In this document: one piece after another, positions 20,772 to 33,372 of the stretch
Numbering within the stretch: the stretch's first letter is position 1
Layout of the letters: every line of letters starts with the position of its first letter
Source: Escherichia phage SP27
Strand: one strand, 5' to 3'
Sequence record: LC494302.1
Length of the DNA stretch: 64,000 bases
Position numbers and translations under genes: made by a program
Notes under the pieces: model-generated
Databases searched by the model: none
What the model was told of the DNA's origin: nothing
The model's input: the letters and a program-made list of their open reading frames with translations, nothing else

Positions 20772-20803
20772 TAACTTGCAGTACTAACAACACGGCGGGA
20801 TCA

Positions 20804-20829
20804 GTTCCCGCCTTTTTTATAGGACAAAC
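20804..20829 (+). terminator. intrinsic terminator
   Basis: GGCGGGAtcagTTCCCGCC followed by TTTTTT. Confidence 0.7.
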
Positions 20830-20832
20830 AAA

Positions 20833-21087: not shown

Positions 21088-21140
21088 CAGTACTCAAATG
21101 TTTTAGTACTATATGTACATACCAACACGGGGGAAACAAA

Positions 21141-21383
21141 ATGATTACTTTAGAAAAACGTATCAAAGAAACTACATCGCTGGTGGAACTGTTAACAGTA
21201 CTCAAATGTAAAACAACACCATTCAGCACGCCGGACTTTATTAATATGGTTGATGTTAATGGTCGCTATCGTATCACGGTCGAACAAGGAGCGGCGAAAG
21301 TATTCAGTACTAAAAACACGAAGGAAGTGATCCACGCCGTTAATGTTAAAAAAGTAGTTGCCATTGATAGTAAAGTACTGTAA
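21141..21383 (+). CDS. hypothetical protein
   Basis: start at ATG 21141 (MITLEKRIKE). Confidence 0.5.
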   Translation: MITLEKRIKETTSLVELLTVLKCKTTPFSTPDFINMVDVNGRYRITVEQGAAKVFSTKNTKEVIHAVNVKKVVAIDSKVL

Positions 21384-21414
21384 GATAGTTACATTAACTC
21401 AAGGAGAACATGCA

Positions 21415-21999
21415 ATGCGTAATTATACTAAATTCATCCGTACACTGTCAGAAATGGAAACCAACAAAGAGATCCTTTCAGCTTGTCGGTTAGCTGGCCT
21501 GGAGATCATCGGTGCTGGTTCTTCCCGTATAGTTTTCGCTTTAAATGATCGGTTAGTGATTAAGGTCGCGAATTGTGATGCGGGTGTAGAACAAAATGAA
21601 ACTGAATGTAAGGTATGGAATTTTTTAGACTATGACCGCCCTCAGTTGAAACAGTACTTTGCAAAGGTGCATATGCATTTATGCGATCCTGATAATATGT
21701 TTATCGTTATGGATCGGTTGAGTACTGCAAGTAAAGGCAGTGTGAAGCACGTAAACGCGTGCAATGAATTAAAGTACAATATTAAACGTAATGCAATCGA
21801 CCGCCAGCACCGCTTTGCTGATGCACTACAACACGTTGATGATACATTATCAACACTAACGATAAGAGATATCAGAAAACAGAATATCGGCCAGGATCGT
21901 AATGGACTTATTAAAGTACTTGATTACGGTTTAACCAGCAATATCTGGAATCAGTACTATAAAAAGCGTGATGTGGCAGCAAGTAAGGTAACACGATAA
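21415..21999 (+). CDS. protein-kinase-like protein (putative small Ser/Thr kinase)
   Basis: IGAGSSRIVF (Gly loop), VIKV (beta3 Lys), RDIRKQNIG (catalytic-loop-like) and KVLDYG (DFG-like) in canonical order; start at ATG 21415 after AAGGAG. Confidence 0.5.
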   Translation: MRNYTKFIRTLSEMETNKEILSACRLAGLEIIGAGSSRIVFALNDRLVIKVANCDAGVEQNETECKVWNFLDYDRPQLKQYFAKVHMHLCDPDNMFIVMDRLSTASKGSVKHVNACNELKYNIKRNAIDRQHRFADALQHVDDTLSTLTIRDIRKQNIGQDRNGLIKVLDYGLTSNIWNQYYKKRDVAASKVTR

Positions 22000-22013
22000 A
22001 AAAGATTAAAAAA

Positions 22014-22035
22014 GGGATTGACTCCGGTCAGTCCC
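22014..22035 (+). terminator. intrinsic terminator (first part of repeated intergenic module)
   Basis: GGGATTGAC-TCCG-GTCAGTCCC hairpin, identical to copies at 19022 and 24270. Confidence 0.55.
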
Positions 22036-22140
22036 TTTGCTATTATATATCCATTGAGAGATAACTCACTGACCCATAGGGTGCGGAAGTGTATCTATTA
22101 TATAAGTATTCAGTACTGAAAACTATTTTTAAAAAAGTAC

Positions 22141-22202
22141 TTGCATTGTACTTAGAATCAAGTATAATGTTTTATATCGAGAGGGGAAATGGTTCTCCCT
22201 GG
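22141..22202 (+). promoter_or_regulatory. class I early promoter plus 5' stem-loop cassette
   Basis: TTGCAT 22141-22146, TATAAT 22163-22168; hairpin AGGGGAAatggTTCTCCCT. Confidence 0.6.
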
Positions 22203-22219
22203 CAATAAGGAATAAAATC

Positions 22220-22441
22220 ATGACTACAATGACTTGCATTTACGCTTCCAATCTACTGAATGATGCGGCCTTTAATGTTGATTCAGAATATCAATGTTAT
22301 CGGGATGAAAATAAAAAAGTTTTTGTAGTTGATAATAATGGTTTCCATATTGAATTACAATCCGGCTTCACTGGTGTTGATGGTAAATCAGTATGGGGCG
22401 TACAGGATGATAAAGGCACATATCATTTTAAACGTAATTAA
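22220..22441 (+). CDS. hypothetical protein
   Basis: 73 aa. Confidence 0.55.
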   Translation: MTTMTCIYASNLLNDAAFNVDSEYQCYRDENKKVFVVDNNGFHIELQSGFTGVDGKSVWGVQDDKGTYHFKRN

Positions 22442-22444
22442 GTA

Positions 22445-22503
22445 TTGACAAAGTATACCAGTACTGTATAATAGTTTACATCAAGGGGAGAATAGTTCTC
22501 CCC
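22445..22503 (+). promoter_or_regulatory. promoter plus 5' stem-loop cassette
   Basis: TTGACA 22445-22450, TATAAT 22467-22472; hairpin GGGGAGAAtagTTCTCCCC 22485-22503. Confidence 0.65.
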
Positions 22504-22525
22504 GATACTAAAAGGAAACAAAATT

Positions 22526-22798
22526 ATGTCCAGCTACTCCGCTACTATGATCATTAAAGATATGAACGGTAATCCTACTTCTGCTGGTGGATCATTTGGA
22601 AACATTAATTTAGATGGTCGGTTATCCATGCAATCAGCAATCGATGCAGCGAAAGAAGTTTTTAAGAATGAATGTACTGTTAGTAAGCTGGATTATATGG
22701 GATTTGCTATCGAAAAAACTAATCGTTTTGTGGACTACAAAAAACCACTGATGATTGATACTAACCTGAAAGCAAACGAAGTGGAGTACTTATTATGA
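22526..22798 (+). CDS. hypothetical protein
   Basis: 90 aa. Confidence 0.55.
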   Translation: MSSYSATMIIKDMNGNPTSAGGSFGNINLDGRLSMQSAIDAAKEVFKNECTVSKLDYMGFAIEKTNRFVDYKKPLMIDTNLKANEVEYLL

Positions 22799-22986
22799 CA
22801 GTTGAAGAAGTTAAAAAAGTACTGGCAGTACTACGCTATCATAATCATTGTAAGGTGAAGAATGATCCTGATTATCTTGATTCATCCCTGGAAGAGGATA
22901 CACTACAAGCAATAAGCCATATGCAAACATTAGCAAAGCGTATGACCGAAAAGAATAGACCGGACTATATCGGAAATAAAATTTAA
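22795..22986 (+). CDS. hypothetical protein
   Basis: ATGA overlap with previous gene. Confidence 0.5.
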   Translation: MTVEEVKKVLAVLRYHNHCKVKNDPDYLDSSLEEDTLQAISHMQTLAKRMTEKNRPDYIGNKI

Positions 22987-22993
22987 AAAGTAC

Positions 22994-23054
22994 TTGCATT
23001 GTAGTTAGATTAACGTATAATGTTTTACATAGAGCGGGGGAATAGTTCTCCCGC
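22994..23054 (+). promoter_or_regulatory. class I early promoter plus 5' stem-loop cassette
   Basis: TTGCAT 22994-22999, TATAAT 23016-23021; hairpin GCGGGGGAAtagTTCTCCCGC. Confidence 0.65.
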
Positions 23055-23072
23055 CAGTCCAGGAGATACACC

Positions 23073-23336
23073 ATGAACACTATCGAAATCACTATCAATG
23101 CACACGTATACGACAACGTAATCATGCAAACTACTATGACCGCTAATGATACCAGTACTTTGCGGAATACTGTTATTAGTGCCGTATGTGCCGCTATCGG
23201 TGATGTCGCCCTGGAAAATGCAGAACATATCAACAACGGTTTCACTATGTGCAAGCGTGATAACGCAAAACATATCATCGTAGAAGGTTACGGCGGTGTA
23301 GAATTTAATGTTTATATGAAAAAAGTACTTGCATAA
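23073..23336 (+). CDS. hypothetical protein
   Basis: 87 aa. Confidence 0.55.
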   Translation: MNTIEITINAHVYDNVIMQTTMTANDTSTLRNTVISAVCAAIGDVALENAEHINNGFTMCKRDNAKHIIVEGYGGVEFNVYMKKVLA

Positions 23337-23385
23337 TAACTAAAACAAAGTATAATGTTTTGCATAGGGGGAGATATCCTCCCCC
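23329..23385 (+). promoter_or_regulatory. class I early promoter plus 5' stem-loop cassette
   Basis: TTGCAT 23329-23334, TATAAT 23351-23356; hairpin GGGGGAGatatcCTCCCCC. Confidence 0.6.
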
Positions 23386-23403
23386 ACTAAAAGGAGTAAT
23401 AAA

Positions 23404-23628
23404 ATGGCTAACTTTGATGAACTGATGCGGGAAGTAGCTAACCTGGCAGAAGAGAAGAAATCATTCGATTCTATCTATAACACCGCTCATCGTGATTCAG
23501 TACTGGCATGTACTCAGGATCAAAAAGATGAACTAATCGCCACCTATCATGAAGCATGGAAGTACTACCGACAATGGGAGAAAGAAGAAAGAGAGTCTAC
23601 CATTGACGGCCTCAACAATCTAATCTAA
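23404..23628 (+). CDS. hypothetical protein
   Basis: 74 aa. Confidence 0.55.
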   Translation: MANFDELMREVANLAEEKKSFDSIYNTAHRDSVLACTQDQKDELIATYHEAWKYYRQWEKEERESTIDGLNNLI

Positions 23629-23647
23629 AAGTTTTATTTCAGTACTA

Positions 23648-23676
23648 TTGACATAGCTTGATAGTACTGATGTAAT
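23648..23676 (+). promoter_or_regulatory. class II promoter
   Basis: CAGTACTATTGACAtagcttgatAGTACTGATGTAAT. Confidence 0.5.
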
Positions 23677-23704
23677 AACTTTACTAACTACAAGGGGAAA
23701 CATA

Positions 23705-23962
23705 ATGGAACAGTTCACACAATATCGGGTAAATCCTCAAGCTATGGCCTACGTAGAAGACCATAAAACATTACCAGTACTAACACCAATTAAAGGCCAT
23801 ATCTATCGTGCAATGTCATGGAATACCGCCCAGGATGGATATACTACCGCTGGCGTGGGTATGTATTGCGGGAATGGTGAATGGTTTGATCCAAATAATC
23901 CGGTAGCCATTGACAGTACTGAAAAAATGAAATGGGCCGACTACATCGAAGATATTTCATAA
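23705..23962 (+). CDS. hypothetical protein
   Basis: 85 aa. Confidence 0.55.
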   Translation: MEQFTQYRVNPQAMAYVEDHKTLPVLTPIKGHIYRAMSWNTAQDGYTTAGVGMYCGNGEWFDPNNPVAIDSTEKMKWADYIEDIS

Positions 23963-23968
23963 AACTAT

Positions 23969-24029
23969 TTGACAGTACTAACCAGTAATGTATAATGTTT
24001 TACATAGAGCGGGGGAATAGTTCTCCCGC
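23969..24029 (+). promoter_or_regulatory. promoter plus 5' stem-loop cassette
   Basis: TTGACA 23969-23974, TATAAT 23991-23996; hairpin GCGGGGGAAtagTTCTCCCGC, identical to the one at 23034. Confidence 0.65.
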
Positions 24030-24051
24030 CAATAGTTTGGAGTAAAACATT

Positions 24052-24252
24052 ATGTCTATCGCTATCGCCCTGGTTGAAGTACTGAAAGAAGCTAAAGCCA
24101 ACCAGATCGACGTAAAGATCCAGGAACTACAAAACGGCGTAATCGGCTGTACTTGTACCGCTGGTGGAGCGGCAGACTATCGAGAACACGAATCACTCGA
24201 ATCACTGGTTCGGTATCTTACCATGATCGTTGATGATTGGAGAATCATCTAA
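24052..24252 (+). CDS. hypothetical protein
   Basis: 66 aa. Confidence 0.55.
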   Translation: MSIAIALVEVLKEAKANQIDVKIQELQNGVIGCTCTAGGAADYREHESLESLVRYLTMIVDDWRII

Positions 24253-24269
24253 CAAAAAAGAATAAAAAA

Positions 24270-24291
24270 GGGATTGACTCCGGTCAGTCCC
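24270..24291 (+). terminator. intrinsic terminator (first part of repeated intergenic module)
   Basis: GGGATTGAC-TCCG-GTCAGTCCC hairpin. Confidence 0.55.
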
Positions 24292-24414
24292 TTTGCTATT
24301 ATATACGCATAGACAAAAACTAGCCCACAGGGTGCATAGGTGTATCTAAAATATATGGTTAATAACGGTGAGTAACTATCTGCTGGTGGAGTGAAAACTA
24401 TTAATAAAAAAGTA

Positions 24415-24443
24415 TTGACAAAGTATATCAGTACTGCGATAAT
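24415..24443 (+). promoter_or_regulatory. class II-like promoter
   Basis: TTGACAaagtatatcAGTACTGCGATAAT; downstream variant hairpin GGGCGGCaatggtgcgacGGCCC. Confidence 0.5.
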
Positions 24444-24496
24444 GTATCTCGTAGGGCGGCAATGGTGCGACGGCCCACAAAGTTAGGAGATTCAAA

Positions 24497-24829
24497 ATGA
24501 GTACTTCAATCGCTATCGTTAAAGCTTTCATCCGTACCAATGTTTCATCTGTATTCATCGACGGTATGGATCGGGAAGTAGAATACTCAATCATTATCGC
24601 ACAGACTGCAAACGGTGCTCGGTATATCCTCAATGATAGTGAAGCAAATCACTACTACTTCACTAAAGCTACTGGCTTTAAACGCATCGATGCCGATGTA
24701 GTATACGCTAAGATGAATAAGCTGGTAGACAAGATTAACGCTAAAGGCACTATTGATTTACAGTACTGGACCGAAACCGATCCAGAATATGGATCTCACC
24801 GCTACCTGAATCCAGGTATTAAAATGTAA
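24497..24829 (+). CDS. hypothetical protein
   Basis: 110 aa; AGGAGA RBS. Confidence 0.55.
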   Translation: MSTSIAIVKAFIRTNVSSVFIDGMDREVEYSIIIAQTANGARYILNDSEANHYYFTKATGFKRIDADVVYAKMNKLVDKINAKGTIDLQYWTETDPEYGSHRYLNPGIKM

Positions 24830-24836
24830 AAAGTAC

Positions 24837-24898
24837 TTGCATAGTACTTAGATTCATGTATAATGTTTTACATAGAGAGGGGGAAATGGTTCTCCCTC
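24837..24898 (+). promoter_or_regulatory. class I early promoter plus 5' stem-loop cassette
   Basis: TTGCAT 24837-24842, TATAAT 24859-24864; hairpin GAGGGGGAAatggTTCTCCCTC. Confidence 0.65.
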
Positions 24899-24918
24899 CT
24901 AAATTAAGGAGTTTTATC

Positions 24919-25320
24919 ATGACCTTCTCAATCACTTCCTTCGCTGACGTTTTAGTACTGGCTCGGACTTTTGGTAAAGATGCACTGGAGTACGCTGTAA
25001 GTAATGGCACTATCCAACCGGAACAGTGCCGCATCATTGGAAACTGCAAACGTTGGGCGGTATCCAATACTATTGCACTGGAAAACTTCCACGATGGCAA
25101 CAATGAATATTCTGTTGATGTAGTATTCGAAGCCGTTGATCTCGGCGGTATCTATAATACTAACCTGAATGATGTGCGTATCGTTCGCACGGGGTTCGGT
25201 GCTTATGATGTATCTATCCGTGAAGCTATGAACACCGGATACATTAGCAAGGACTTACTTGCTCACATCATGCAGCTGTGTACGGAACGTAACGAAGCAC
25301 GTACTATCTTAGGGCTGTAA
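24919..25320 (+). CDS. hypothetical protein
   Basis: start at ATG 24919 (MTFSITSF) after AAGGAG. Confidence 0.55.
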   Translation: MTFSITSFADVLVLARTFGKDALEYAVSNGTIQPEQCRIIGNCKRWAVSNTIALENFHDGNNEYSVDVVFEAVDLGGIYNTNLNDVRIVRTGFGAYDVSIREAMNTGYISKDLLAHIMQLCTERNEARTILGL

Positions 25321-25344
25321 GCAATACACATCACCAAACATCAT

Positions 25345-25365
25345 AGGCCGCTCTCTAGCGGCCTT
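25345..25365 (+). terminator. possible terminator hairpin
   Basis: AGGCCGCtctctaGCGGCCT; no clear T-run. Confidence 0.35.
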
Positions 25366-25388
25366 AACTATATCAGGAGTACATACAC

Positions 25389-25598
25389 ATGATCTATACA
25401 GTATACAGCGTCCTAGGCACTATTGCAGGCGTACATGATAACGTCGATAGTGCTATGCGTACAGTACTGCAACAGGTTCCACTAAAGCCTAAGACCATTA
25501 AGCAGATGACAGCACGACTAACCAGGGCGACCGATGGCGTGGAAGTATGGCAGGACTACGGGGATACACAGATAATCGTTAGCGTAACGAAGGATTAA
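25389..25598 (+). CDS. hypothetical protein
   Basis: 69 aa; AGGAG RBS. Confidence 0.55.
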   Translation: MIYTVYSVLGTIAGVHDNVDSAMRTVLQQVPLKPKTIKQMTARLTRATDGVEVWQDYGDTQIIVSVTKD

Positions 25599-25626
25599 TG
25601 CGTAAAGGGATCTAGTACTGATTCAG

Positions 25627-25692
25627 AAAAAAGTCAAGGCGTTTTTAAAATTATGCGTTAAAAAAATGCATAGGTAATCCCTTGACTTTTTT
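25627..25692. terminator. long imperfect hairpin, possible bidirectional terminator
   Basis: AAAAAAGTCAAGG ... CCTTGACTTTTTT arms enclosing about 40 nt, at the boundary before family B array. Confidence 0.45.
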
Positions 25693-25789
25693 GAAATAAA
25701 AGGGATTGGACTATGGCAAAATGCGTAGGGGGCTAAAGGGCGGGTAACCTTAGCGACTTCGATAAAGGGGTATTACGAATAAAATGTTA

Positions 25790-25818
25790 TTGATTTTTTA
25801 TACGAATCGTATATTATA
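25790..25818 (+). promoter_or_regulatory. putative promoter for family B array
   Basis: TTGATT then about 17 bp then TATATTAT; GGAG RBS before ATG 25848. Confidence 0.4.
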
Positions 25819-25847: not shown

Positions 25848-26045
25848 ATGCGTATTTTAACTAAAGAACAGCACCACGAAAGACTTATCAATAACATGGC
25901 TATGATAATGTATAAGTCCCATGACCGTGGTATTGCCTATAAGCGTGAATTAATTATGGCACTATTCATTGGAACTAACTTTCAGGAAAGGTATGTCAAC
26001 GATTGGATTTGGTATTTAATTGAAGATATAACGAGTAAACTATGA
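25848..26045 (+). CDS. hypothetical small protein, paralog family B
   Basis: motif FIGTNFQERYVNDWIWYLIEDI. Confidence 0.6.
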   Translation: MRILTKEQHHERLINNMAMIMYKSHDRGIAYKRELIMALFIGTNFQERYVNDWIWYLIEDITSKL

Positions 26046-26242
26046 AAATGCGTATTTTAAATAAAGAAGAATATCAATCACTGTTACGTAAAAACTTCAC
26101 AAAGATTTATAATACAGACACACACGTAGAACGAATGGAGTTATACCTTTTGATTACTTTGGGAACTAACTATCAGGAAAGATGGGTGATTCAATATATG
26201 GATACATTGAAAAATAAAATATTGTCCACGAGGAAACAATGA
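26042..26242 (+). CDS. hypothetical small protein, paralog family B
   Basis: motif LGTNYQERWV; ATGA overlap. Confidence 0.6.
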   Translation: MKMRILNKEEYQSLLRKNFTKIYNTDTHVERMELYLLITLGTNYQERWVIQYMDTLKNKILSTRKQ

Positions 26243-26448
26243 AAACTATAACACGAACCCAATCATACGGTCTTATCTTGAAATACATGGACTTAATGGT
26301 GGATATCAGCAAAGACCTTCCTAAAACTGAAATTGAAGTTGCAAGAGCAGAGATCCGCATGTTGGCTGTACTGAACACAAACCATCAGGAAGATTATGTT
26401 GAAGAATGGATTCGATTTTTAATTCAAGATATAAAGAGTAAATTATGA
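26239..26448 (+). CDS. hypothetical small protein, paralog family B
   Basis: motif LNTNHQEDYVEEWIRFLIQDI. Confidence 0.6.
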   Translation: MKTITRTQSYGLILKYMDLMVDISKDLPKTEIEVARAEIRMLAVLNTNHQEDYVEEWIRFLIQDIKSKL

Positions 26449-26657
26449 TTTTTTTAACACCAGAAGAATATAAGAAACGTTTCAATTCCGCACAGGGTGA
26501 AATCTTACTTATATACCTTTCAAATGCAGACCTTAACTTATCAAGGGTATTAGAAAAAGATTTACTTATGGGTGCATTCCTTGATACAGACTTTCAGGTG
26601 TATTATGTAGGGGAATACTTAATTGCACTCCAGAATTACATTAAGAGTAAACTATGA
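26445..26657 (+). CDS. hypothetical small protein, paralog family B
   Basis: motif LDTDFQVYYVGEYLIALQNYIKSKL. Confidence 0.6.
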   Translation: MIFLTPEEYKKRFNSAQGEILLIYLSNADLNLSRVLEKDLLMGAFLDTDFQVYYVGEYLIALQNYIKSKL

Positions 26658-26866
26658 ATAGCATTAACTCAAATCTATATACCGAACGCGTCGCGGCCAG
26701 ACAACTTGAAATTCTCATAGTATATGAAGAGACTGATGATTTAAACTTAGCATTAGTATTGGAAAATGATATACTATTGGGTGCATTCCTCGGCACAGAC
26801 TATCAGGAGCACTTCTTGAATGAGTATATAATTGCACTCCAGAAATACATTAAGAGCAAACTATGA
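26654..26866 (+). CDS. hypothetical small protein, paralog family B
   Basis: motif LGTDYQEHFLNEYIIALQKYIKSKL. Confidence 0.6.
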   Translation: MNSINSNLYTERVAARQLEILIVYEETDDLNLALVLENDILLGAFLGTDYQEHFLNEYIIALQKYIKSKL

Positions 26867-27081
26867 AACATTTAAGTAATTACGAGAAGAATAAAATTAT
26901 CGTTGCTGCAATAAACAAATATTTTACACTTCCTCACACAGAAGGTTTATGTGTAAGGGAACACAGGATAAACACCACCGATATACGCATGATGGCTGTA
27001 CTGGGGACGAACTTTCAGGAAGAGTATGTTGTTGCACACATAGTTGCCCTCACTGATCTAATAAGGGACAAATGTAAATGA
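26863..27081 (+). CDS. hypothetical small protein, paralog family B
   Basis: motif LGTNFQEEYV. Confidence 0.6.
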   Translation: MKHLSNYEKNKIIVAAINKYFTLPHTEGLCVREHRINTTDIRMMAVLGTNFQEEYVVAHIVALTDLIRDKCK

Positions 27082-27335
27082 AACACTTAACTGATGATGA
27101 ATTTGAAACTATAATTCGTAAACTAACCCCCATCACAAGGATAGTCTACGGTGACCCCAGCCTTACATGGAACCAAATGCGAGCTAAAGTTAATGAGCTA
27201 TGGTTGCTGTACTTTATGGGGACTCAATATCAAGATAAGTTTTGCACAGAATATATCGAACAATTAACGAATGTTATACAGGATAAACTAGATGATTATT
27301 TGCTCACAAAACATGAAGACTTTATCAGGAGTTGA
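27078..27335 (+). CDS. hypothetical small protein, paralog family B
   Basis: motif MGTQYQDKF. Confidence 0.6.
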   Translation: MKHLTDDEFETIIRKLTPITRIVYGDPSLTWNQMRAKVNELWLLYFMGTQYQDKFCTEYIEQLTNVIQDKLDDYLLTKHEDFIRS

Positions 27336-27564
27336 GTATCAAACTGCCCTATTCTCTTTAATCCATGCCCTTAGAAAAAACAATGCCTTATATGGTGCAC
27401 CTGAAGTGGATGTTATCAACGGTGAACTTTATCTTATGAAATTCATTGGAACAAACTATCAAGATCTGTTCATTCAACGATACTTATCAGCATTAAGAAA
27501 CCAAATCCAATATAAAACCATCAAGGCCAAAAAAGAATGGAATAAACAATGCGACACAGACTAA
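27313..27564 (+). CDS. hypothetical small protein, paralog family B
   Basis: motif IGTNYQDLF; start uncertain (track 27292, ATG 27313 also possible). Confidence 0.5.
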   Translation: MKTLSGVEYQTALFSLIHALRKNNALYGAPEVDVINGELYLMKFIGTNYQDLFIQRYLSALRNQIQYKTIKAKKEWNKQCDTD

Positions 27565-27797
27565 ATCACAAAATGTATTGTAAACTATTGCAGACATTGG
27601 CACAGAAACACTATGACACGGTATCTGGAATATTACCCTATGATATCATGCGTTTACTTCACTGTGAGGCCGAGATGCTTGTACTGATGACAGGCACTGA
27701 TAAAAACGCAATTGCCAAATCAATAGATATGTTCATCGAAGCACACTGCCAACACATGAGAACCGAAATCTGGAGGAAAGAGAATGATAATCCTTAA
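27549..27797 (+). CDS. hypothetical small protein, paralog family B (divergent)
   Basis: degenerate motif MTGTDKNAIAKSIDMFIEAH. Confidence 0.5.
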   Translation: MRHRLNHKMYCKLLQTLAQKHYDTVSGILPYDIMRLLHCEAEMLVLMTGTDKNAIAKSIDMFIEAHCQHMRTEIWRKENDNP

Positions 27798-27999
27798 TGA
27801 GTATCAGTATCATTGGAGGTTACAAACTATCAAATCAAAAGTGTATAGTATTGTGTTAAACAAATCTATTGCACAAGAGGACAAATGTGTTATAATAGCT
27901 GAAATGAAGTTGGGTGTATTCGTAGGGACAAACTATCAAAACATCTACACTGACGTATTGTTAAGTGCCTTACGTAACAAGGTGGTATCCAAAATATGA
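27784..27999 (+). CDS. hypothetical small protein, paralog family B
   Basis: motif VGTNYQNIY. Confidence 0.6.
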   Translation: MIILNEYQYHWRLQTIKSKVYSIVLNKSIAQEDKCVIIAEMKLGVFVGTNYQNIYTDVLLSALRNKVVSKI

Positions 28000-28214
28000 G
28001 AAATTTACAAGGCTTTGAATACATCAGACTCCTGAAAACATGTGGAAGCAGAAGGAGAATGATATCAAGCGATAAGAGCATCCAAGCTAACCTTAAGCAC
28101 GCACTAGTAACTGAACTCTATGTAGGTGCACTCTTAGGCACAAACTATCAACAAATGTATGTAGATCTATGGATTGACGCTCTACAGAAAGAGGTTAAAA
28201 GTAAATGCAAATGA
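27996..28214 (+). CDS. hypothetical small protein, paralog family B
   Basis: motif LGTNYQQMYV. Confidence 0.6.
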   Translation: MRNLQGFEYIRLLKTCGSRRRMISSDKSIQANLKHALVTELYVGALLGTNYQQMYVDLWIDALQKEVKSKCK

Positions 28215-28423
28215 TTAATTTAAGTAAAGACGAATTTTATGTTATACTGGCGAAAACTTATCCAGCACGTAAGGCCGTTTATGATAGTCACATTATTGAA
28301 CCCTCAAAGAAGTTGATTTTAGTAAATGAGATAAAGATGCTTTCAGTCTTAGGAACAAACTATCAAGAGAATGCTGTACTGATGTTAATTGATGCCCTCC
28401 AGAGAGAGGTTAAACGTAAATGA
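28205..28423 (+). CDS. hypothetical small protein, paralog family B
   Basis: motif LGTNYQENAV. Confidence 0.6.
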   Translation: MQMINLSKDEFYVILAKTYPARKAVYDSHIIEPSKKLILVNEIKMLSVLGTNYQENAVLMLIDALQREVKRK

Positions 28424-28650
28424 AAATGATTAATTTAACTTACCATGAATATCAAAAACGTTTAAATGCATCCAGAGATATAAGGATTCAAATATTCAAT
28501 AACAAAAAATTGAAACCTGATACCAGAAGAATCAAAATCATAGAAGCCGTGTTGTGTAACTTCCTAGGGACTAACTATCAGGAAGGTAAGGTAGAAAACT
28601 ATCTTATAGAACTCATGAATAGTATTGAAAATAAATGTAAGGGTAATTAA
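28420..28650 (+). CDS. hypothetical small protein, paralog family B
   Basis: motif LGTNYQEGKV; C-terminal ...SIENKCKGN. Confidence 0.6.
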   Translation: MKMINLTYHEYQKRLNASRDIRIQIFNNKKLKPDTRRIKIIEAVLCNFLGTNYQEGKVENYLIELMNSIENKCKGN

Positions 28651-28651
28651 C

Positions 28652-28891
28652 ATGAAAATGATTAAATTATCTCAAGCAAAATATAAAGAACGCCTGGTAA
28701 AAATTGCACCTGGACTTAATGAAATCCATCACGGAGAAGTCATTAAACACGGAAATAAGATGATTATGAAACTTGAGTTAAAGGTGGGTGCATTCATAGG
28801 AACAAACTATCAGGAGTATTATGTAGATGAATACATAATCGCACTTAAGAGATACATTGGAAGAAAACTATATCTACAAACTAAAGAATAG
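28652..28891 (+). CDS. hypothetical small protein, paralog family B
   Basis: start at ATG 28652 (MKMIKLSQ); motif IGTNYQEYYV. Confidence 0.6.
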   Translation: MKMIKLSQAKYKERLVKIAPGLNEIHHGEVIKHGNKMIMKLELKVGAFIGTNYQEYYVDEYIIALKRYIGRKLYLQTKE

Positions 28892-28920
28892 TATTGAAAA
28901 TAAATGTAAGGGTAATTAAC

Positions 28921-29184
28921 ATGCAAATGATCAATTTAAGTAAAGATGAATATACCGAGCGTATGACAAAAATTACGCACAAACGTAATACAATCTATCA
29001 CAACCCAGAAATTCAACACAGTAAGAAAATGATTATGATGCGTGAGTTAAAGATGGGTGTATTCTTAGGAACAAACTATCAAGATACAGAAGTAAATCGC
29101 TTAATCGCGGAGTTACTACTGGAAATCAGAGGTAAGCTGTACTTTCATCAAATGACCCAACCACTGAGGTGTACTGATCGATGA
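28921..29184 (+). CDS. hypothetical small protein, paralog family B (recent duplicate)
   Basis: start at ATG 28921 (MQMINLSKDEY); preceded by a 38-nt exact copy of the 28420 gene end. Confidence 0.6.
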   Translation: MQMINLSKDEYTERMTKITHKRNTIYHNPEIQHSKKMIMMRELKMGVFLGTNYQDTEVNRLIAELLLEIRGKLYFHQMTQPLRCTDR

Positions 29185-29432
29185 ATGCGATGAATATTGT
29201 GAATAACATCAGATTAGCAGAAAGATTTGATAGAATTGGGGAAGCACTGAGAAGATACGATAAAGAATATGGTCATTTGAGCTTTTCTATAGAAAAGAGA
29301 TATGAACTTGAAGCAGAGTTTAAAATGCAGAGTCTCTTAGGCACACAGTATCAAAACCAATATATTCAAACTTGGATTGATTGTTTAATCCAGACAATTT
29401 ACGTAAGAAACATTAAATGCAAAATGAAATGA
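29181..29432 (+). CDS. hypothetical small protein, paralog family B
   Basis: motif LGTQYQNQYI. Confidence 0.6.
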   Translation: MNAMNIVNNIRLAERFDRIGEALRRYDKEYGHLSFSIEKRYELEAEFKMQSLLGTQYQNQYIQTWIDCLIQTIYVRNIKCKMK

Positions 29433-29671
29433 TATACTTAACACATGATGAGTTAACAGAAAGACTAGATAAATCCAAAAGACTTACAAATAAACTTCCT
29501 CACAACACAAATCAAACCCCAGCAGAAAGGAGTGCAGAAGTTTTATTCCAAAGATTACCATACCTTCTTGGAACTGATAGGCAAGAGTATCACATTGAAC
29601 GTATAATTAAATATCTCAAAATTACTATTAAGGAAAAAGTAAATGCAAATGAAATACTTAACAGACGATGA
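29417..29671 (+). CDS. hypothetical small protein, paralog family B
   Basis: motif LGTDRQEYHIERIIKYLKITIKEK; close paralog of next gene. Confidence 0.6.
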   Translation: MQNEMIYLTHDELTERLDKSKRLTNKLPHNTNQTPAERSAEVLFQRLPYLLGTDRQEYHIERIIKYLKITIKEKVNANEILNRR

Positions 29672-29894
29672 GTTAAAAGAACGACTAATTAAATCCAGAA
29701 AACTTACAAATCAACTTCCAAACGACACAAACAAGTCACATGCCGAAAGGAGTGCAGAAGTTTTATACATTCAACTCATGTACTTTCTTGGCACTGACAG
29801 ACAAGAGTATTACATTGAAAGTATGCTTCGATATCTTAAATTCTCTATAAAGGAAAAGATACATGCTCAAGAATTTAAAAATCCTAACAGTTAA
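29643..29894 (+). CDS. hypothetical small protein, paralog family B
   Basis: motif LGTDRQEYYIESMLRYLKFSIKEK. Confidence 0.6.
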   Translation: MQMKYLTDDELKERLIKSRKLTNQLPNDTNKSHAERSAEVLYIQLMYFLGTDRQEYYIESMLRYLKFSIKEKIHAQEFKNPNS

Positions 29895-30105
29895 TGAATA
29901 TCATACGATTGTAATGAAAACTAATAGTGCAATTTCTAAAAAATCAAACCCCAAGTACATACTGGAACACACATTTGAAGAACGTCAATTAGCTTTAGTT
30001 GAAGCAAAACTTCTTGCACTCCTAGGGACTAACTATCAAGAAGAATACATCAGAAAACTAATATACCTTTTAACTAAACATATAAGAAAAAGAAAAAATG
30101 CATGA
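29863..30105 (+). CDS. hypothetical small protein, paralog family B
   Basis: motif LGTNYQEEYI. Confidence 0.6.
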   Translation: MLKNLKILTVNEYHTIVMKTNSAISKKSNPKYILEHTFEERQLALVEAKLLALLGTNYQEEYIRKLIYLLTKHIRKRKNA

Positions 30106-30332
30106 AACACTTGACAGATGATGAACATGGGCTTATAGTAATGGATGTAATCAACATCGAATACAAAAAGTTGATACGCTACCGTTGTTATGAAGATAAG
30201 CAACTCGTTCTAGCAGAACAGAAGTTGTTTCGACTCTTAAACACAAACTTCCAAGCACAATACGAAGAATCGTATATGTACCTTTTGGCGAGGAAAGCAA
30301 AAAGAGATTATGAAAATTTTAAGCAAAGGTGA
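30102..30332 (+). CDS. hypothetical small protein, paralog family B
   Basis: motif LNTNFQAQY. Confidence 0.55.
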   Translation: MKHLTDDEHGLIVMDVINIEYKKLIRYRCYEDKQLVLAEQKLFRLLNTNFQAQYEESYMYLLARKAKRDYENFKQR

Positions 30333-30525
30333 TTCAGTAATATTACTTATAGAGAGTTCAAGTAAATTCTTAAACATAACACTGTCTGATATAGATGAAG
30401 ATGACAAAGAAGTACTGAGAGCAGATTTAAGAGTACTGTTACATATCGGAACAAACCTACAAGAAGAATATGTAGAATGCTACATCAATGAACTTAAAGA
30501 ATCAGTACTGAGAAAATGCAAATGA
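30310..30525 (+). CDS. hypothetical small protein, paralog family B
   Basis: motif IGTNLQEEYV. Confidence 0.6.
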   Translation: MKILSKGDSVILLIESSSKFLNITLSDIDEDDKEVLRADLRVLLHIGTNLQEEYVECYINELKESVLRKCK

Positions 30526-30743
30526 AAATCATTACCGATGCAGAATACCTAACAATCATAAATGGACTGTTTTTGAAGCTCTTCGTCATTAACACATCAG
30601 ATATACCAGATATGGATAAAATTATTAAGAGAAATGAAGTCTATGTTCTAGCTACCCTTGGAACGAACTATCAAGAACACGACATTAAAGATTATATTAA
30701 TACACTTAAACGAGCGATTGAACTAAAATGCCAAAACCACTAG
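30516..30743 (+). CDS. hypothetical small protein, paralog family B
   Basis: motif LGTNYQEHDI. Confidence 0.6.
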   Translation: MQMKIITDAEYLTIINGLFLKLFVINTSDIPDMDKIIKRNEVYVLATLGTNYQEHDIKDYINTLKRAIELKCQNH

Positions 30744-30943
30744 GAACAGCAGAATACATTGAACTAATGGCATTACACTTCTCATCCTTTCAGAAACTTA
30801 GGCGAGAATCAAAGAATGATTTAGAATATACCATCAGAGGTTCCGATTTAAGAATGCTTCTCACCCTAGACACAGATTCCCAAGAGCGATTTGTCAATGA
30901 GCATATTAGAGCACTTTTAATGGAAATTCAAAGTAAACTATGA
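30728..30943 (+). CDS. hypothetical small protein, paralog family B
   Basis: motif LDTDSQERFV. Confidence 0.55.
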   Translation: MPKPLGTAEYIELMALHFSSFQKLRRESKNDLEYTIRGSDLRMLLTLDTDSQERFVNEHIRALLMEIQSKL

Positions 30944-31155
30944 AGATAATATCAAACCAAGAGTACTTGGCACTATTCAGGAAGAATAATCACAAATATA
31001 TGGCACTTGATTCAAGAACTGATATAAGTGAACTTGAAAAAAATCTTTTGCGTTCAGAGATGATAGTACTGACACTCTTAGGAACACAGCATCAAGAGAG
31101 AACTGTTAATTCACACATAGGTATTCTTATACAGATTGTACTGGAAAAGATATGA
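30940..31155 (+). CDS. hypothetical small protein, paralog family B
   Basis: motif LGTQHQERTV. Confidence 0.6.
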   Translation: MKIISNQEYLALFRKNNHKYMALDSRTDISELEKNLLRSEMIVLTLLGTQHQERTVNSHIGILIQIVLEKI

Positions 31156-31373
31156 GAATCATAACACAACAAGATATTCTTAAGTTCACAAGGGTTCATG
31201 CATCTGAATTTGATGCTATATTATCAAAAAGTTACAACAACCCTTATACAGAAGATGTACATTACAGTGAATTATGGATGTATATACTTTTAGGTACAAA
31301 TAAACAAGAGCAAGCAGTACAGAAGTATTTGACAGCTTTACGTGATGCTACTGCTAATGGAGTATGTGTTTAA
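31152..31373 (+). CDS. hypothetical small protein, paralog family B
   Basis: motif LGTNKQEQAV. Confidence 0.6.
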   Translation: MRIITQQDILKFTRVHASEFDAILSKSYNNPYTEDVHYSELWMYILLGTNKQEQAVQKYLTALRDATANGVCV

Positions 31374-31374
31374 T

Positions 31375-31617
31375 ATGAAAGTACTGACAGAACTAGAAAT
31401 GTATCATAGATTTAATAAGTACTATCATTTACTTAAGCCTATACAGAGGATTAAATGTCCATTTGAAGAGAAACAGGTTTTAATCTATGAGCACAAGTTC
31501 TTTGTATCATTAGGTACAGATCAACAAGAGTACTATTTGACGTTGTACTTGATTACATTAATAGATTTAATTCACTATAAAACAAAACAAGCTAATAAAG
31601 AGAAATATGAAAACTAA
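31375..31617 (+). CDS. hypothetical small protein, paralog family B
   Basis: start at ATG 31375 (MKVLTELEMY); motif LGTDQQEYYL. Confidence 0.55.
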   Translation: MKVLTELEMYHRFNKYYHLLKPIQRIKCPFEEKQVLIYEHKFFVSLGTDQQEYYLTLYLITLIDLIHYKTKQANKEKYEN

Positions 31618-31951
31618 TATACAACTCAAGGTATATAAATCATTTGAACATACATATATCAAAAGTAGTCTATGTAGAGATGTAATGGATTACAAGGGTA
31701 AGCCATTCACAATTACCTATGATTCTTATGTTAGTGATTTATATATATCATTTGTTAATTACGAAAATAAAATATACAAGCACGTTGATATTAAAGATTT
31801 AAGTACTTTATCTGAAGAGGAATACTTTCAGGAATCATTAGTATGGGATTTAGAGTTTCCTATGCCATTAGTACATAAGATGATAGTACTAATGAAAGAA
31901 TCTAAACAGGAGCCTAATGGTGATTATGAAGAACACACAGTTGAGTATTAA
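31607..31951 (+). CDS. hypothetical protein, paralog family C
   Basis: motif EEEYFQESLVWD. Confidence 0.6.
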   Translation: MKTNIQLKVYKSFEHTYIKSSLCRDVMDYKGKPFTITYDSYVSDLYISFVNYENKIYKHVDIKDLSTLSEEEYFQESLVWDLEFPMPLVHKMIVLMKESKQEPNGDYEEHTVEY

Positions 31952-32321
31952 AAGTACTGATAATATTAAGAGTTATACAAGCTCAAGTACTGTGACAATC
32001 GAAGTGAATTCTCTTAATGCTGGTAATACAGTAGATAAGTTCTTTATTGCTCAAGGGTACAGGAAAGATATTCATCAATATTGTTCAGTATATGGGGAGT
32101 ACAATAGTACTGAAGATATAATTTATTGGTCAACACATCAAGATTATCTAACTAAAATTGGCGTTCCAGATGTTAGTACTTTATCTGAAGAAGAATACTT
32201 TCAGTACAGCTTAGTACATGATTTACATATACCTTTAGGGTTAATCAAGGGTATGCAGGAAGAGGTTCATAAGCTTAAATCCATGAGTAAAGGTACTTTC
32301 ATTAGAACAGTGCAATACTAG
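31917..32321 (+). CDS. hypothetical protein, paralog family C
   Basis: motif EEEYFQYSLVHD; start uncertain (overlaps previous gene). Confidence 0.5.
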   Translation: MVIMKNTQLSIKSTDNIKSYTSSSTVTIEVNSLNAGNTVDKFFIAQGYRKDIHQYCSVYGEYNSTEDIIYWSTHQDYLTKIGVPDVSTLSEEEYFQYSLVHDLHIPLGLIKGMQEEVHKLKSMSKGTFIRTVQY

Positions 32322-32322
32322 C

Positions 32323-32351
32323 TTGACAGTACTTTTCTTTAGTGCTATAGT
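32323..32351 (+). promoter_or_regulatory. internal sigma70-like promoter
   Basis: TTGACAgtacttttctttagtgcTATAGT. Confidence 0.55.
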
Positions 32352-32380
32352 ACCTGTACGTTAATCATAGGGTAGAAATT

Positions 32381-32626
32381 ATGTTAAATTTTTTAAATTT
32401 TCTTATCGTCTTGTGTATTGTTCTTGGGATTGCACCATTTGTATTGTATTTCATGGATTCAGATGAAATGCAGAAGATGAATTGCACAAGGACAGGACAG
32501 AGTAGAGTAGAGACGATTCTTATGCCTGTTACGGTTATTGTTAACAACATGCCCATTACGAACATGGTCCCTACCCTAACGACAACGTACCAGTACTCTT
32601 GTACAGACGGAGAGAGGTGGAGATGA
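32381..32626 (+). CDS. small membrane protein (predicted N-terminal transmembrane helix)
   Basis: N-term MLNFLNFLIVLCIVLGIAPFVLYFM is hydrophobic; downstream of internal promoter. Confidence 0.45.
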   Translation: MLNFLNFLIVLCIVLGIAPFVLYFMDSDEMQKMNCTRTGQSRVETILMPVTVIVNNMPITNMVPTLTTTYQYSCTDGERWR

Positions 32627-32943
32627 AATTTAATATAGCAAAAACATCGAGTATATGTATTTTTGGTTATGCAGAAGAGTTAGGTGATATTGACATTCTT
32701 TTGTACAAAAAGGATGGTGTTATGCATTTCAAGTACCAGGATGAAGAGGCAGACAATTATCTTTTACCTAATTTAGTACAAATGCAGGAAGAGGAATTAT
32801 TCCAGTACAGCTTAATATACGACATTGTTATTTGCACGATGCCAGTACTAATTAGTATTCAAAAAGTGATGCTCGATATGTATGATAAGCTAATACAAGG
32901 TACATCAGGGAGAATCATTGAAATCGATATACAAGACAATTAA
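32623..32943 (+). CDS. hypothetical protein, paralog family C
   Basis: start at ATG 32623 (MKFNIAK) after GGTGGAG; motif EEELFQYSLIYD. Confidence 0.55.
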   Translation: MKFNIAKTSSICIFGYAEELGDIDILLYKKDGVMHFKYQDEEADNYLLPNLVQMQEEELFQYSLIYDIVICTMPVLISIQKVMLDMYDKLIQGTSGRIIEIDIQDN

Positions 32944-33136
32944 TCAAGAATGGAAGACCCAAAAGTACAGGGAATTCAACAGGAATTTTACAAAAGATGC
33001 ATTGAATTTAAAAACAACAGAGTTTGATATGTTTATTTTTCTTGGAACACGTTCACAAGAACAATTTGTTCATTATTATATAAATTCGTTGCGAACGGAG
33101 ATAGTATGCAAAACACAGGGTATTATAAAAAGGTAA
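32918..33136 (+). CDS. hypothetical small protein, paralog family B
   Basis: motif LGTRSQEQFVHYYINSLRTEI. Confidence 0.55.
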   Translation: MKSIYKTINQEWKTQKYREFNRNFTKDALNLKTTEFDMFIFLGTRSQEQFVHYYINSLRTEIVCKTQGIIKR

Positions 33137-33372
33137 ACCAATATTTGTACGCTACAAAGTACAGGGATTTTTGTTTAAAGGGTGGTGATGAAGATTTTTC
33201 TTTGCGATTATCAGAATTTAATCTGTTATTTTATCTTGGTACAAAAGAACAAGAAGAAATGGCACAGAAATTTATCAAGCACCTTTTACAAAAAATTAAT
33301 ATGCAAATTTTGATGCTTAAGTTACAGAATGAGATAAATGAATATGAATCCAGAAATAGTTCAGGATCTTAA
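33106..33372 (+). CDS. hypothetical small protein, paralog family B
   Basis: motif LGTKEQEEMAQKFIKHLLQKI. Confidence 0.55.
   Translation: MQNTGYYKKVNQYLYATKYRDFCLKGGDEDFSLRLSEFNLLFYLGTKEQEEMAQKFIKHLLQKINMQILMLKLQNEINEYESRNSSGS

Follow-up and report, generated by a model that had tools for sequence, protein, structure and literature searches.

Why does a jumbo phage keep some thirty small and diverged copies of one gene side by side? We addressed this question for an array, here termed family B, in the DNA of Escherichia phage SP27 (LC494302.1), an Asteriusvirus (121Q/PBECO4-like) jumbo coliphage with E. coli as host. The window denotes the whole stretch analysed, 64,000 nucleotides in length. 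Hua et al. (2017) devoted one sentence to a tandem array of phage 121Q, the genes of which they termed 'very similar' (PMC5646251). This array probably corresponds to family B (121Q genes 319-346), although 121Q also harbors an array of family C, the family located downstream of family B in the window. In the literature we found no published analysis of the fold, position, expression or evolution of the family B array, and the papers on phAPEC6, Sharanji, fEgEco12 and CBB as well as that of Iyer et al. do not discuss it.

Results

Family B comprises 30 protein-coding genes

According to the ORF listing, + strand ORFs of 64-96 aa run unbroken through the array. When the ORFs of the 64-kb window were searched with an HMM built from the members, exactly 30 matches were obtained, with E values of 1e-13 to 1e-26, whereas every other ORF had E>1. 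All 30 genes are located on the + strand, 28 of them at 25848-33372 and two at 45549-45939 inside the family C array. Thus, the array described in the initial annotation and its two distant members were recovered; however, its count of about 30 genes within 25848-33372 has to be corrected to 28 members plus four non-members, which occupy 31607-32943. In line with these results, a loose regular expression for the motif matched the + strand 28 times at 25848-33372 and once more at 45862, with zero matches on the - strand. As the HMM is self-trained on the members, PHROG 4148 served as independent check. It matched seven of the seven members tested over essentially their full length (~1-73 of 74), six of them with E values of 1e-16 to 1e-22 and the divergent member at 33106-33372 with 1.6e-3. 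The features are given below, E denoting the HMM value unless PHROG 4148 is named.

25848..26045 (+), member 1, E 1.9e-19
26048..26242 (+), member 2, E 1.3e-19
26239..26448 (+), member 3, E 2.9e-22
26445..26657 (+), member 4, E 1.2e-20
26654..26866 (+), member 5, E 1.1e-19; PHROG 4148 E 8e-17
26863..27081 (+), member 6, E 7.5e-24
27078..27335 (+), member 7, E 2.1e-25
27313..27564 (+), member 8 (alternative start 27292), E 4.1e-19; PHROG 4148 E 5e-18
27549..27797 (+), member 9 (aberrant motif TGTDKN and 6-aa insert), E 3.2e-19
27784..27999 (+), member 10, E 7.5e-24
27996..28214 (+), member 11, E 2.2e-25
28211..28423 (+), member 12, E 4.7e-23; PHROG 4148 E 3e-21
28426..28650 (+), member 13, E 1.1e-24
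28658..28891 (+), member 14 (recent duplicate pair with member 15; TRF period 269, 77%), E 6.1e-26
28927..29184 (+), member 15, E 1e-25
29190..29432 (+), member 16, E 3.7e-19
29429..29671 (+), member 17 (most similar pair with member 18, 61% aa), E 3.3e-22
29649..29894 (+), member 18, E 2.1e-23
29863..30105 (+), member 19, E 2.5e-21
30102..30332 (+), member 20, E 3.6e-16
30310..30525 (+), member 21, E 2.6e-21
30522..30743 (+), member 22 (modelled with AlphaFold, pLDDT 97), E 3.4e-24
30728..30943 (+), member 23, E 4.7e-20
30940..31155 (+), member 24, E 7.4e-22
31152..31373 (+), member 25, E 1.1e-21
31375..31617 (+), member 26, E 1.1e-21
31607..32943 (+), interruption by four non-family-B genes, three PHROG 13866 and one with a hydrophobic N-terminus
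31607-31951, 31917-32321 and 32599-32943 (+), PHROG 13866 genes of the interruption
32381-32626 (+), ORF of the interruption with hydrophobic N-terminus; own promoter-like site at 32323
32918..33136 (+), member 27 (TTG start), E 1.2e-17
33106..33372 (+), member 28 (most divergent; long C-terminal helix; model pLDDT 86), E 2.8e-13
45555..45770 (+; listed ORF from TTG 45549), member 29, satellite within the family C array, E 6.9e-16
45748..45939 (+), member 30, satellite, E 5.3e-18; PHROG 4148 E 1.2e-16

Full length is retained by 28/28 window copies. Family B occupies ~7 kb of the window and family C ~25 kb; Rfam and tRNA scans of the window yielded no matches. Family B represents genuine protein-coding genes restricted to one phage lineage.

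The PHROG 13866 genes of the interruption are short relatives of the downstream family C, with which they share a nearly invariant F-Q motif. A relationship of family B to family C and PHROG 13866 was rejected (hhalign probability 0.1%).

The paralogs are diverged copies of a single domain

In the initial annotation the proteins had been described as a conserved C-terminal core preceded by variable N-termini. This view does not hold, as the homology spans the whole protein (MKxLTxxEY ... LGTNYQE..V..YI..L...I..K). The N-terminus M-K-x-L-T-x-x-E-Y is also conserved, and hence the entire ~70 aa constitute one domain. Conserved columns comprise the core hydrophobics, T5xxE8 and T48xxQ51, and likewise K69. 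The amino acid identity between paralogs averages 24% and ranges from 10 to 61%, with the maximum for members 17 and 18, which is at variance with the designation 'very similar' by Hua et al. Recent duplications at the DNA level are limited to two, at 28593-29081 (77%) and 29422-29857 (79%); family B is a protein-level family and no DNA repeat. The members have a median pI of 8.7 (range 4.4 to 9.9), their net charge varies between -6 and +8, and many of them contain K/R-rich tails at the C-terminal end. Cys ligands are absent from the proteins.

A four-helix fold is predicted without known relatives

The earlier suggestion of a small helical domain is supported by structure prediction. AlphaFold2, employing the 30-paralog alignment, yielded a compact four-helix model for member 22 (pLDDT 97, pTM 0.81) with helices at residues 6-14, 17-24, 30-44 and 51-71. 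The most divergent member (33106-33372) retains the hairpin of helix 3, GT cap and helix 4 with pLDDT >90 and differs in its N-terminal part. Moreover, BFVD models of other Asteriusvirus members, which were predicted independently, superpose with TM scores of 0.76-0.97, indicating a consistent fold. In the model, helices start exactly at the conserved T-x-x-Q of the motif and at a further T-x-x-E (residues 5-8). Both look like helix N-capping boxes, which suggests a structural rather than a catalytic role.

The remote homology search proposed in the initial annotation revealed no informative relative beyond PHROG 4148, the sole family match, which is labelled 'unknown function'. With all 30 members, Pfam did not return a family common to at least two members, NCBIfam matches were at chance level only, and no PADLOC model was matched by more than one member, all PADLOC matches being chance-level. 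The best hit in a sequence profile search of the PDB had an E value of 3.8, Foldseek against the PDB gave no match with E<1, and in the BFVD structure search family B itself was the sole match. Likewise, profile and structure searches indicated no homology or fold similarity to known anti-defence or host-shutoff proteins.

Three candidate classes were rejected. A helix-turn-helix DNA-binding protein is not supported by any HTH or winged-HTH fold or HTH profile match, and the ranges of pI and net charge as well as the median pI do not agree with the strongly and uniformly acidic surface of a DNA-mimic anti-restriction protein of the Ocr/ArdA type. A virion or inner-body protein was dismissed as well, as the phAPEC6 orthologs gp462c-489c are absent from the published virion proteome, the list of which (62 proteins, Table 1) jumps from gp347 to gp549 (PMC7247149).

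The array adjoins the terminal repeat behind a conserved promoter-like site

The following features define the left border of the array:

4822..25750 (+), single copy of the ~20.9-kb direct terminal repeat (DTR), from the alignment with fEgEco12
25723..25770 (+), conserved G+C-rich block at the right DTR boundary, GGGTAACC|TTAGCGACTTCGA
25790..25817 (+), predicted array promoter, sigma-70-type, TTGATT-16-TATTAT, conserved in 7/7 aligned genomes

Base 1 of fEgEco12, the termini of which were confirmed through restriction digests (PMC13070987), aligns to window position 4822, and its DTR end at 20,993 corresponds to window position ~25750. Small + strand genes fill the DTR, with sigma-70 promoters close to the consensus (23 intergenic sites, 12 of them perfect TTGACA-16/17-TATAAT). 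The G+C-rich block at its right boundary occurs only once in the window. Across 7 genomes, among them the divergent Turkey5, the block is largely invariant, and its 3' half shows no variation at all. The first array gene follows the right DTR edge at a distance of ~100 bp; in fEgEco12 it starts at 21,091. In Muenster, with a DTR at 1-20,030, the first two genes beyond the DTR are family B members.

The promoter-like site ahead of the array matches the consensus at 9-10 of 12 positions and is weaker than the DTR promoters. For its -35 element, TTGATT in the window, most relatives have TTGACT; positions 25771-25789 form an A/T-rich UP-like tract, and an RBS (GGAG) is present at 25839-25842. A generic promoter scan of 24-35 kb gave no enrichment over shuffles, and the promoter evidence is limited to the conserved site at 25790. 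Inside the array, no intergenic promoter-like site was found ahead of 32323. At 14 of the 27 junctions, neighbouring array genes overlap by 4 nt (ATGA), and no real spacers occur outside the 1.3-kb interruption. The array genes form one translationally coupled polycistronic block. This block appears to open the unique genome region as its first transcription unit, downstream of a conserved promoter of the host (sigma-70) type.

RNA-seq of the related phage PA5oct revealed that its DTR genes are early and dependent on the host RNAP (PMC7318152). For CBB the short-gene region adjoining the repeat is predicted to be early; no Asteriusvirus transcriptomics was found in the literature.

Individual members are conserved and the set turns over

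All 35 Asteriusvirus records retain the array, and it also occurs in 7 records of Klebsiella phages. Together with the consistent fold, this conservation removes the grounds for refutation named in the initial annotation. Carriers outside Asteriusvirus are Klebsiella Alcyoneusvirus phages and one uncultured phage. When 1.84 billion representatives were searched exhaustively with HMMER, only 104 clusters were obtained, all of small proteins except for one 269-aa fusion. In the UB fusion protein, the 200 aa at the C-terminal end have no homolog in the other loci and no Pfam or PHROG match, and therefore provide no guilt-by-fusion clue. Complete RefSeq E. coli genomes contain no family B match, and in fENko-Kae01 no member was found in the first ~20 kb past the DTR. 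In these searches, family B did not extend beyond this phage group.

Related phages contain a separate ortholog for each paralog; the pooled dN/dS against 6 genomes is 0.32-0.38, with values below 1 in 28/28 ortholog groups. Pooled by column, dN/dS stayed below 1 throughout, and hence the positive selection expected of an arms race was not seen. Along helix 4, the columns that evolve fastest (54, 57, 61, 68 and 72) show a helical periodicity. Among 8 genomes, nearly all copies are intact and the copy number varies from 21 to 32 by local gains and losses. In the main clade the gene order is conserved and most paralogs are stably kept, individual members being replaced in a mosaic pattern. Turkey5 is ~79% identical at the nucleotide level in the core and 91-99% in its DTR-end proteins, whereas its family B members reach a best-hit identity of just 28-71% and lack 1:1 orthologs; this divergent lineage carries a different member set. 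Taken together, these comparisons show purifying selection on each paralog, but a turnover of the complete set that is faster than that of the core genome. The family expanded via local tandem duplication and follows a birth-and-death mode of evolution.

Discussion

Several known systems resemble the family B array in part. The SPO1 gp37-60 module and the T5 pre-early genes are host-takeover or pre-early modules in or next to terminal repeats. The array likewise adjoins the terminal repeat at the leading genome end, and shares with the SPO1, T5 and PA5oct modules many small non-structural genes in one direction and host-type promoters in the adjacent repeat. In contrast to these modules of unrelated genes, family B is a single fold repeated ~30 times; it lies just outside the repeat, and its early timing is inferred here. 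The MGF families of ASFV are terminal multigene families of large eukaryotic DNA viruses. Amplification of poxvirus K3L has been described as a 'genomic accordion' (Elde 2012, as cited in PMC13359090). Family B has in common with such families tandem paralogs near a terminus by terminal repeats, a strain-variable copy number and a turnover faster than that of the core. However, recent amplification as in the poxvirus accordion was not found: near-identical copies are missing (maximum 61% aa), which speaks for a family diversified long ago and against an accordion that is still active. Bacillus phage G, likewise a jumbo phage with ~30-35 tandem copies of one small domain, shows a lineage-specific expansion of ~35 zinc-ribbon proteins (Iyer et al. 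2021, PMC7824862); family B is all-helical and devoid of Cys ligands, and the two phage groups are unrelated.

The reading we favour, with a probability somewhat short of even, is that the array encodes early, non-structural binders whose shared scaffold displays many surfaces and which serve host take-over or anti-defence. The proteins would be made early by the host RNA polymerase, alongside the terminal-repeat genes, and each may act as a small cytoplasmic binder. As only the hydrophobic core and the two helix-capping boxes are conserved, one scaffold could present ~30 different surfaces over the whole pI range, each perhaps matched to its own target among host factors and defence proteins. 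The repertoire would then serve host take-over or counter-defence, and its composition would track the hosts met by the phage. A bolder version, possible though clearly less probable, regards the array as the phage equivalent of the terminal multigene families of large eukaryotic DNA viruses: an orphan four-helix scaffold would have acquired ~30 specificities, each neutralising a different defence or host factor early, and the make-up of the array would determine the host range of Asteriusvirus and Alcyoneusvirus jumbo phages. We counted against the binder reading that the array promoter is weaker than those of the DTR, that the searches yielded no resemblance to known anti-defence or host-shutoff proteins and that an arms-race signature is missing; the stable paralogs of the main clade also fit housekeeping roles in the phage cycle.

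Alternatively, the paralogs might be small nucleic-acid-binding or regulatory proteins that act on the phage's own genome or transcripts, as transcription or translation modulators or as DNA-organising proteins. The basic median pI, the K/R-rich tails of many members and the conserved K69 agree with this idea, and for the phage G expansion Iyer et al. suggested a comparable function; we nevertheless regard it as unlikely. No more probable in our estimation is a largely dispensable cargo, in which duplicates without copy-specific function fill an enlarged headful capsid under weak selection, that is, the capsid-size ratchet of Hua et al., who cited the 121Q array as genome expansion through tandem duplication. 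The variable copy number and the rather relaxed constraint (dN/dS ~0.35) are in accord with it. However, filler DNA would decay, whereas ancient paralogs (24% identity) have been retained in two genera and an uncultured lineage, no ortholog group reaches a dN/dS of 1, and nearly all copies are intact. Slightly less probable still is a co-assembly of the paralogs into a hetero-oligomer inside the infected cell, a scaffold, chaperone or compartment, the array then specifying the parts of a single machine. Coupled translation promotes co-expression at fixed ratios, and the common core and the gene order conserved in the main clade likewise fit. Yet a copy number of 21 to 32, the mosaic replacement of members and the entirely different Turkey5 set are difficult to reconcile with one machine, the confidently modelled monomer with its own buried core needs no partner, and the proteins are absent from virions. 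Finally, the notion that the ORFs are not genes but a degenerate DNA repeat translated by chance is effectively refuted and retains hardly any probability: besides the small ORF size nothing speaks for it, whereas one strand, one frame per gene, dN/dS below 1, the confident predicted fold and conservation at the protein rather than the DNA level speak against it.

Jumbo phages spend tens of kilobases on paralog arrays, and family B provides a defined entry point to them: a fold predicted with confidence and unmatched in the structure searches, its 30 naturally occurring surface variants, a constant location next to the terminal-repeat boundary and clear evidence of selection on every copy. If the members are indeed host- or defence-specific binders, the copies would represent a rich source of new anti-defence proteins, and the array would explain part of the large genome size. 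If the array is dispensable, it would instead support the capsid-ratchet view of giant phage genomes.

Composition of the family B array

From position 25848 onwards, the plus strand carries an unbroken succession of small ORFs. A loose regular expression for the [LF]GTN[YF]QE core of the ~70-aa family B proteins yielded 28 matches in 25848-33372 and one at 45862, and none on the minus strand. With a profile built from the members we retrieved exactly 30 ORFs of the window (E-values of 1e-13 to 1e-26), the next ORF scoring E>1. In addition, the independent profile PHROG 4148 was matched along its entire length by all seven members tested, with E-values of 1e-16 to 1e-22 for six of them and 1.6e-3 for the most divergent one. 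These results confirm the tandem array and recover the two additional members at 45549-45939 proposed in the initial annotation. The estimate of about 30 genes in 25848-33372 was correct as to the array itself, but 28 members are located there and genes of other families interrupt them.

Features of family B in the window
25848-33372, plus strand: main array, 28 members (profile search)
45549-45939: further pair of members (profile search)
31607-32943: interruption by four genes of other families, three of PHROG 13866 and one encoding a hydrophobic N-terminus

The three PHROG 13866 genes are related to family C, which lies downstream, but are short. This second, much larger paralog array comprises ~40 genes (140-207 aa) in 34079-60023 with a near-invariant F-Q within an EE..FQ.S motif, and its members are spread over many separate PHROGs with function-unknown labels. 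By hhalign, families B and C are unrelated.

The family B alignment spans the whole protein and not the core alone. The C-terminal core is conserved as initially described (E-x-x-L-x-x-L-G-T-N-Y-Q-E-x-x-V-x-x-Y-I-x-x-L-x-x-x-I-x-x-K), but the N-termini are not simply variable: the proteins start with a conserved M-K-x-L-T-x-x-E-Y, followed by a variable middle part. The mean identity between paralogs is 24% (range 10-61%), and only two tandem duplications are detectable at the DNA level.

Predicted fold

In keeping with the small helical domain surmised earlier, AlphaFold2 run with the 30-paralog alignment predicts four helices (residues 6-14, 17-24, 30-44 and 51-71) with a pLDDT of 97 and a pTM of 0.81, and a one-residue beta bridge from residue 2 to residue 48. 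The model of the most divergent member (33106-33372) retains the helix-3/turn/helix-4 unit with pLDDT >90, with a deviating N-terminus and an extended last helix. Moreover, BFVD models of other Asteriusvirus members, which are independent predictions, superpose with TM-scores of 0.76-0.97. T48, Q51 and L62 are near-invariant; the other conserved columns comprise hydrophobic residues spaced i/i+3/i+4/i+7, the T5-x-x-E8 motif and the polar residues E39, N49, E52 and K69. In the model, helix starts coincide exactly with both T-x-x-(Q/E) motifs, which would make them helix N-capping boxes and thereby determinants of the fold.

No relative of known structure or function was found: the best hit of a sequence profile search against the PDB had an E-value of 3.8, Foldseek of the model against the PDB gave no match with E<1, and no family in Pfam, NCBIfam or PADLOC was matched by more than one member.

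Position at the terminal repeat

Megablast of 25848-33372 returned 35 phage records with 80-96% identity, all of them from jumbo myoviruses of the genus Asteriusvirus that infect E. coli or Salmonella (121Q, PBECO4, phAPEC6, G17, UB, fEgEco12 and others), and the genes beneath the matches are annotated as 'hypothetical protein' without exception. For fEgEco12, the linear ends and a 20,993-bp direct terminal repeat (DTR) were verified by restriction digests (PMC13070987). Window position 4822 aligns with base 1 of fEgEco12 and the end of its DTR maps to ~25750; the window therefore consists of three parts.

Layout of the window and promoter of the array
1-4821: right-end unique region (fEgEco12 mapping)
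4822-25750: DTR, single assembled copy (fEgEco12 mapping)
25751 onwards: left-end unique region (fEgEco12 mapping)
25790-25817: sigma-70-type promoter, TTGATT/TTGACT, 16-17 nt spacer, TATTAT/TAAAAT

The DTR contains 23 near-consensus sigma-70 promoters, including 12 perfect TTGACA-16/17-TATAAT sequences, so that strong host-type promoters are packed unusually densely in it. Each of them is intergenic and has an A/T-rich tract in front of it, and most lie no more than ~60 nt ahead of a start codon. Weak hints of function came from two DTR genes (17311-17667 and 21415-21999): one product is a GNAT acetyltransferase (Pfam E-value 4e-9) and the other is protein-kinase-like (sub-threshold, E-value 4e-3), its probable counterpart in phage Muenster, judged by size and DTR position, being annotated as 'putative protein kinase'. 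Enzymes of this kind are typical of early gene products that modify the host.

The physical genome end is surrounded by 1.3 kb (4550-5830) that are devoid of ORFs and contain hairpins and short direct repeats, e.g., GGCTAAACGG and GGATGGCTAGACG units at 5560-5720; this stretch may be packaging- or terminus-related. The window contains 107 copies of the palindrome TCAGTACTGA (core AGTACTGA), with 2.3 expected from shuffles. The copies cluster in the DTR and in the terminus region without ORFs, being densest in 4550-6500 and continuing through 4822-25750. One copy lies upstream of the array at 25614, and none is present in 25622-30410.

Operon anatomy and expression

The 249-bp spacer upstream of the array (25599-25847) hardly varies among six Asteriusvirus genomes, and its conservation is still recognisable in the divergent phage Turkey5. 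It comprises, in this order, a G+C-rich block found nowhere else in the window and coinciding with the DTR boundary, an A/T-rich tract, the sigma-70-type promoter, a GGAG ribosome binding site and the first ATG. A TTGACT hexamer is embedded in a conserved hairpin at 25676-25707 (AATCCCTT ... AAGGGATT, loop of 16 nt), past the last DTR gene and ahead of the DTR boundary; a similar hairpin with TTGACT is located at 24267-24294.

Fourteen of the 27 junctions between family B genes are 4-nt ATGA overlaps; the others are mostly longer overlaps or gaps of at most 7 nt, with one gap of 35 nt. This arrangement argues that the array up to 31617 is one compact, translationally coupled unit, and the promoter scan revealed no intergenic promoter-like site within the array before 32323. 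RNA sequencing of the related Pseudomonas phage PA5oct assigned the DTR genes to the early class and showed dependence on the host RNA polymerase (PMC7318152), and the short-gene region adjoining the repeat of CBB was predicted to be early. By analogy, the family B array would be expressed early. None of its phAPEC6 orthologs (gp462c-489c) is present among the 62 virion proteins in Table 1 of the phAPEC6 study (PMC7247149).

Distribution

HMMER, run exhaustively against 1.84 billion representatives, returned only 104 family B clusters, 52-96 aa in size with the sole exception of a 269-aa protein of phage UB. As to conservation of the array in related genomes, tblastn detected family B in every one of the 35 Asteriusvirus records, as well as in seven Klebsiella Alcyoneusvirus records. 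In Muenster, ~12 members, including the first two post-DTR genes, are scattered across 17 kb past the DTR. Seventeen members, 12 of them in tandem, are encoded by the uncultured 101-kb contig ERZ14189038, which shares <2% nucleotide similarity with every isolated phage. The equivalent 20 kb of Klebsiella phage fENko-Kae01 contain no family B member; a family-C-like array directly follows its DTR.

The UB protein (AXC36995.1; 8868-9677 of the UB locus) is a fusion of an N-terminal family B domain and a ~200-aa C-terminal region without a homolog in the other loci or a Pfam or PHROG match. Shorter proteins consisting of a B domain and an extension are encoded at 12370-12768 of the compared locus L002 and 10709-11059 of the Muenster locus. 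In the protein database, many members bear the label 'hypothetical protein [Escherichia coli]' and come from contigs of ~345-360 kb; E. coli isolate assemblies therefore contain whole jumbo-phage genomes. Complete RefSeq E. coli genomes gave no match.

Evolution of the array

The main array comprises 21 to 32 members in eight genomes. At ≥65% identity, the window paralogs have their own orthologs in the same order in most of these genomes, and 17 ortholog groups are present in seven of the eight, with local duplications, losses and swaps. Comparison of the window with six genomes gives a pooled dN/dS of 0.32-0.38. Since dN/dS is below 1 in each of the 28 ortholog groups (0.11 to 0.75) and nearly all copies are full-length, the genes are real and individually maintained. 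Column by column, dN/dS exceeds 1 at no position, and the least constrained columns (54, 57, 61, 68 and 72) follow the periodicity of a single face of helix 4. Charge is not conserved (pI 4.4 to 9.9).

Neighbouring paralogs are more similar than distant ones (29.8% vs 24.2% identity; permutation p<2e-4), and neighbours also make up the three most similar pairs, the signature of tandem duplication. Relative to 121Q the array is mosaic: orthologs with 99% identity adjoin positions with a best match of 37-60%. The structural region of the Turkey5/JNE01 lineage is ~79-81% identical in nucleotide sequence to other Asteriusvirus genomes; just past the DTR boundary, the best B-to-B matches are 28-71% without 1:1 orthology. 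The array thus turns over faster than the core genome. At the end of the DTR, Turkey5 proteins share 91-99% identity with those of window 22526-25598 even though its structural core is only ~79% identical in nucleotide sequence, suggesting either a recent terminal-repeat exchange between lineages or unusually strong conservation of the repeat.

Discussion

Taken together, these data show that family B is a multigene family confined to one lineage, that its small four-helix products are not virion proteins, and that its array is the first operon after the terminal repeat. The family was generated by tandem duplication, is kept under purifying selection and turns over faster than the core genome.

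As PHROG 4148, the family was already catalogued but uncharacterised. In 121Q it is probably the array remarked on by Hua et al. (PMC5646251), a remark repeated in the phAPEC6 paper (PMC7247149); Iyer et al. do not discuss it in their broad survey of jumbo phages (PMC7824862). In kind, the array is comparable to the host-takeover modules that phages carry at terminal repeats, to the multigene families, or accordions, at the genome termini of large eukaryotic DNA viruses (reviewed in PMC13359090) and to the ~35-copy zinc-ribbon expansion of phage G. In contrast to these, it has another fold, presents one fold ~30 times, and is old and diversified rather than recently amplified. The present analysis adds a confident fold prediction for which no relative was detected, a position fixed at the boundary of the DTR, the anatomy of the operon and evidence of birth-and-death evolution under selection.

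That the ORFs are not genes at all has, given the dN/dS values and their full-length state, a negligible probability. We regard nucleic-acid-binding or regulatory proteins as unlikely. Weakly selected filler from genome expansion is about equally improbable, and subunits of one hetero-oligomeric assembly slightly more so.

Tentatively, and with somewhat less than an even chance of being right, we favour a host take-over or counter-defence repertoire. The host RNA polymerase would express the family B proteins early, and these would act as binders in the cytoplasm, the conserved core displaying many different surfaces that may address different host or defence targets.
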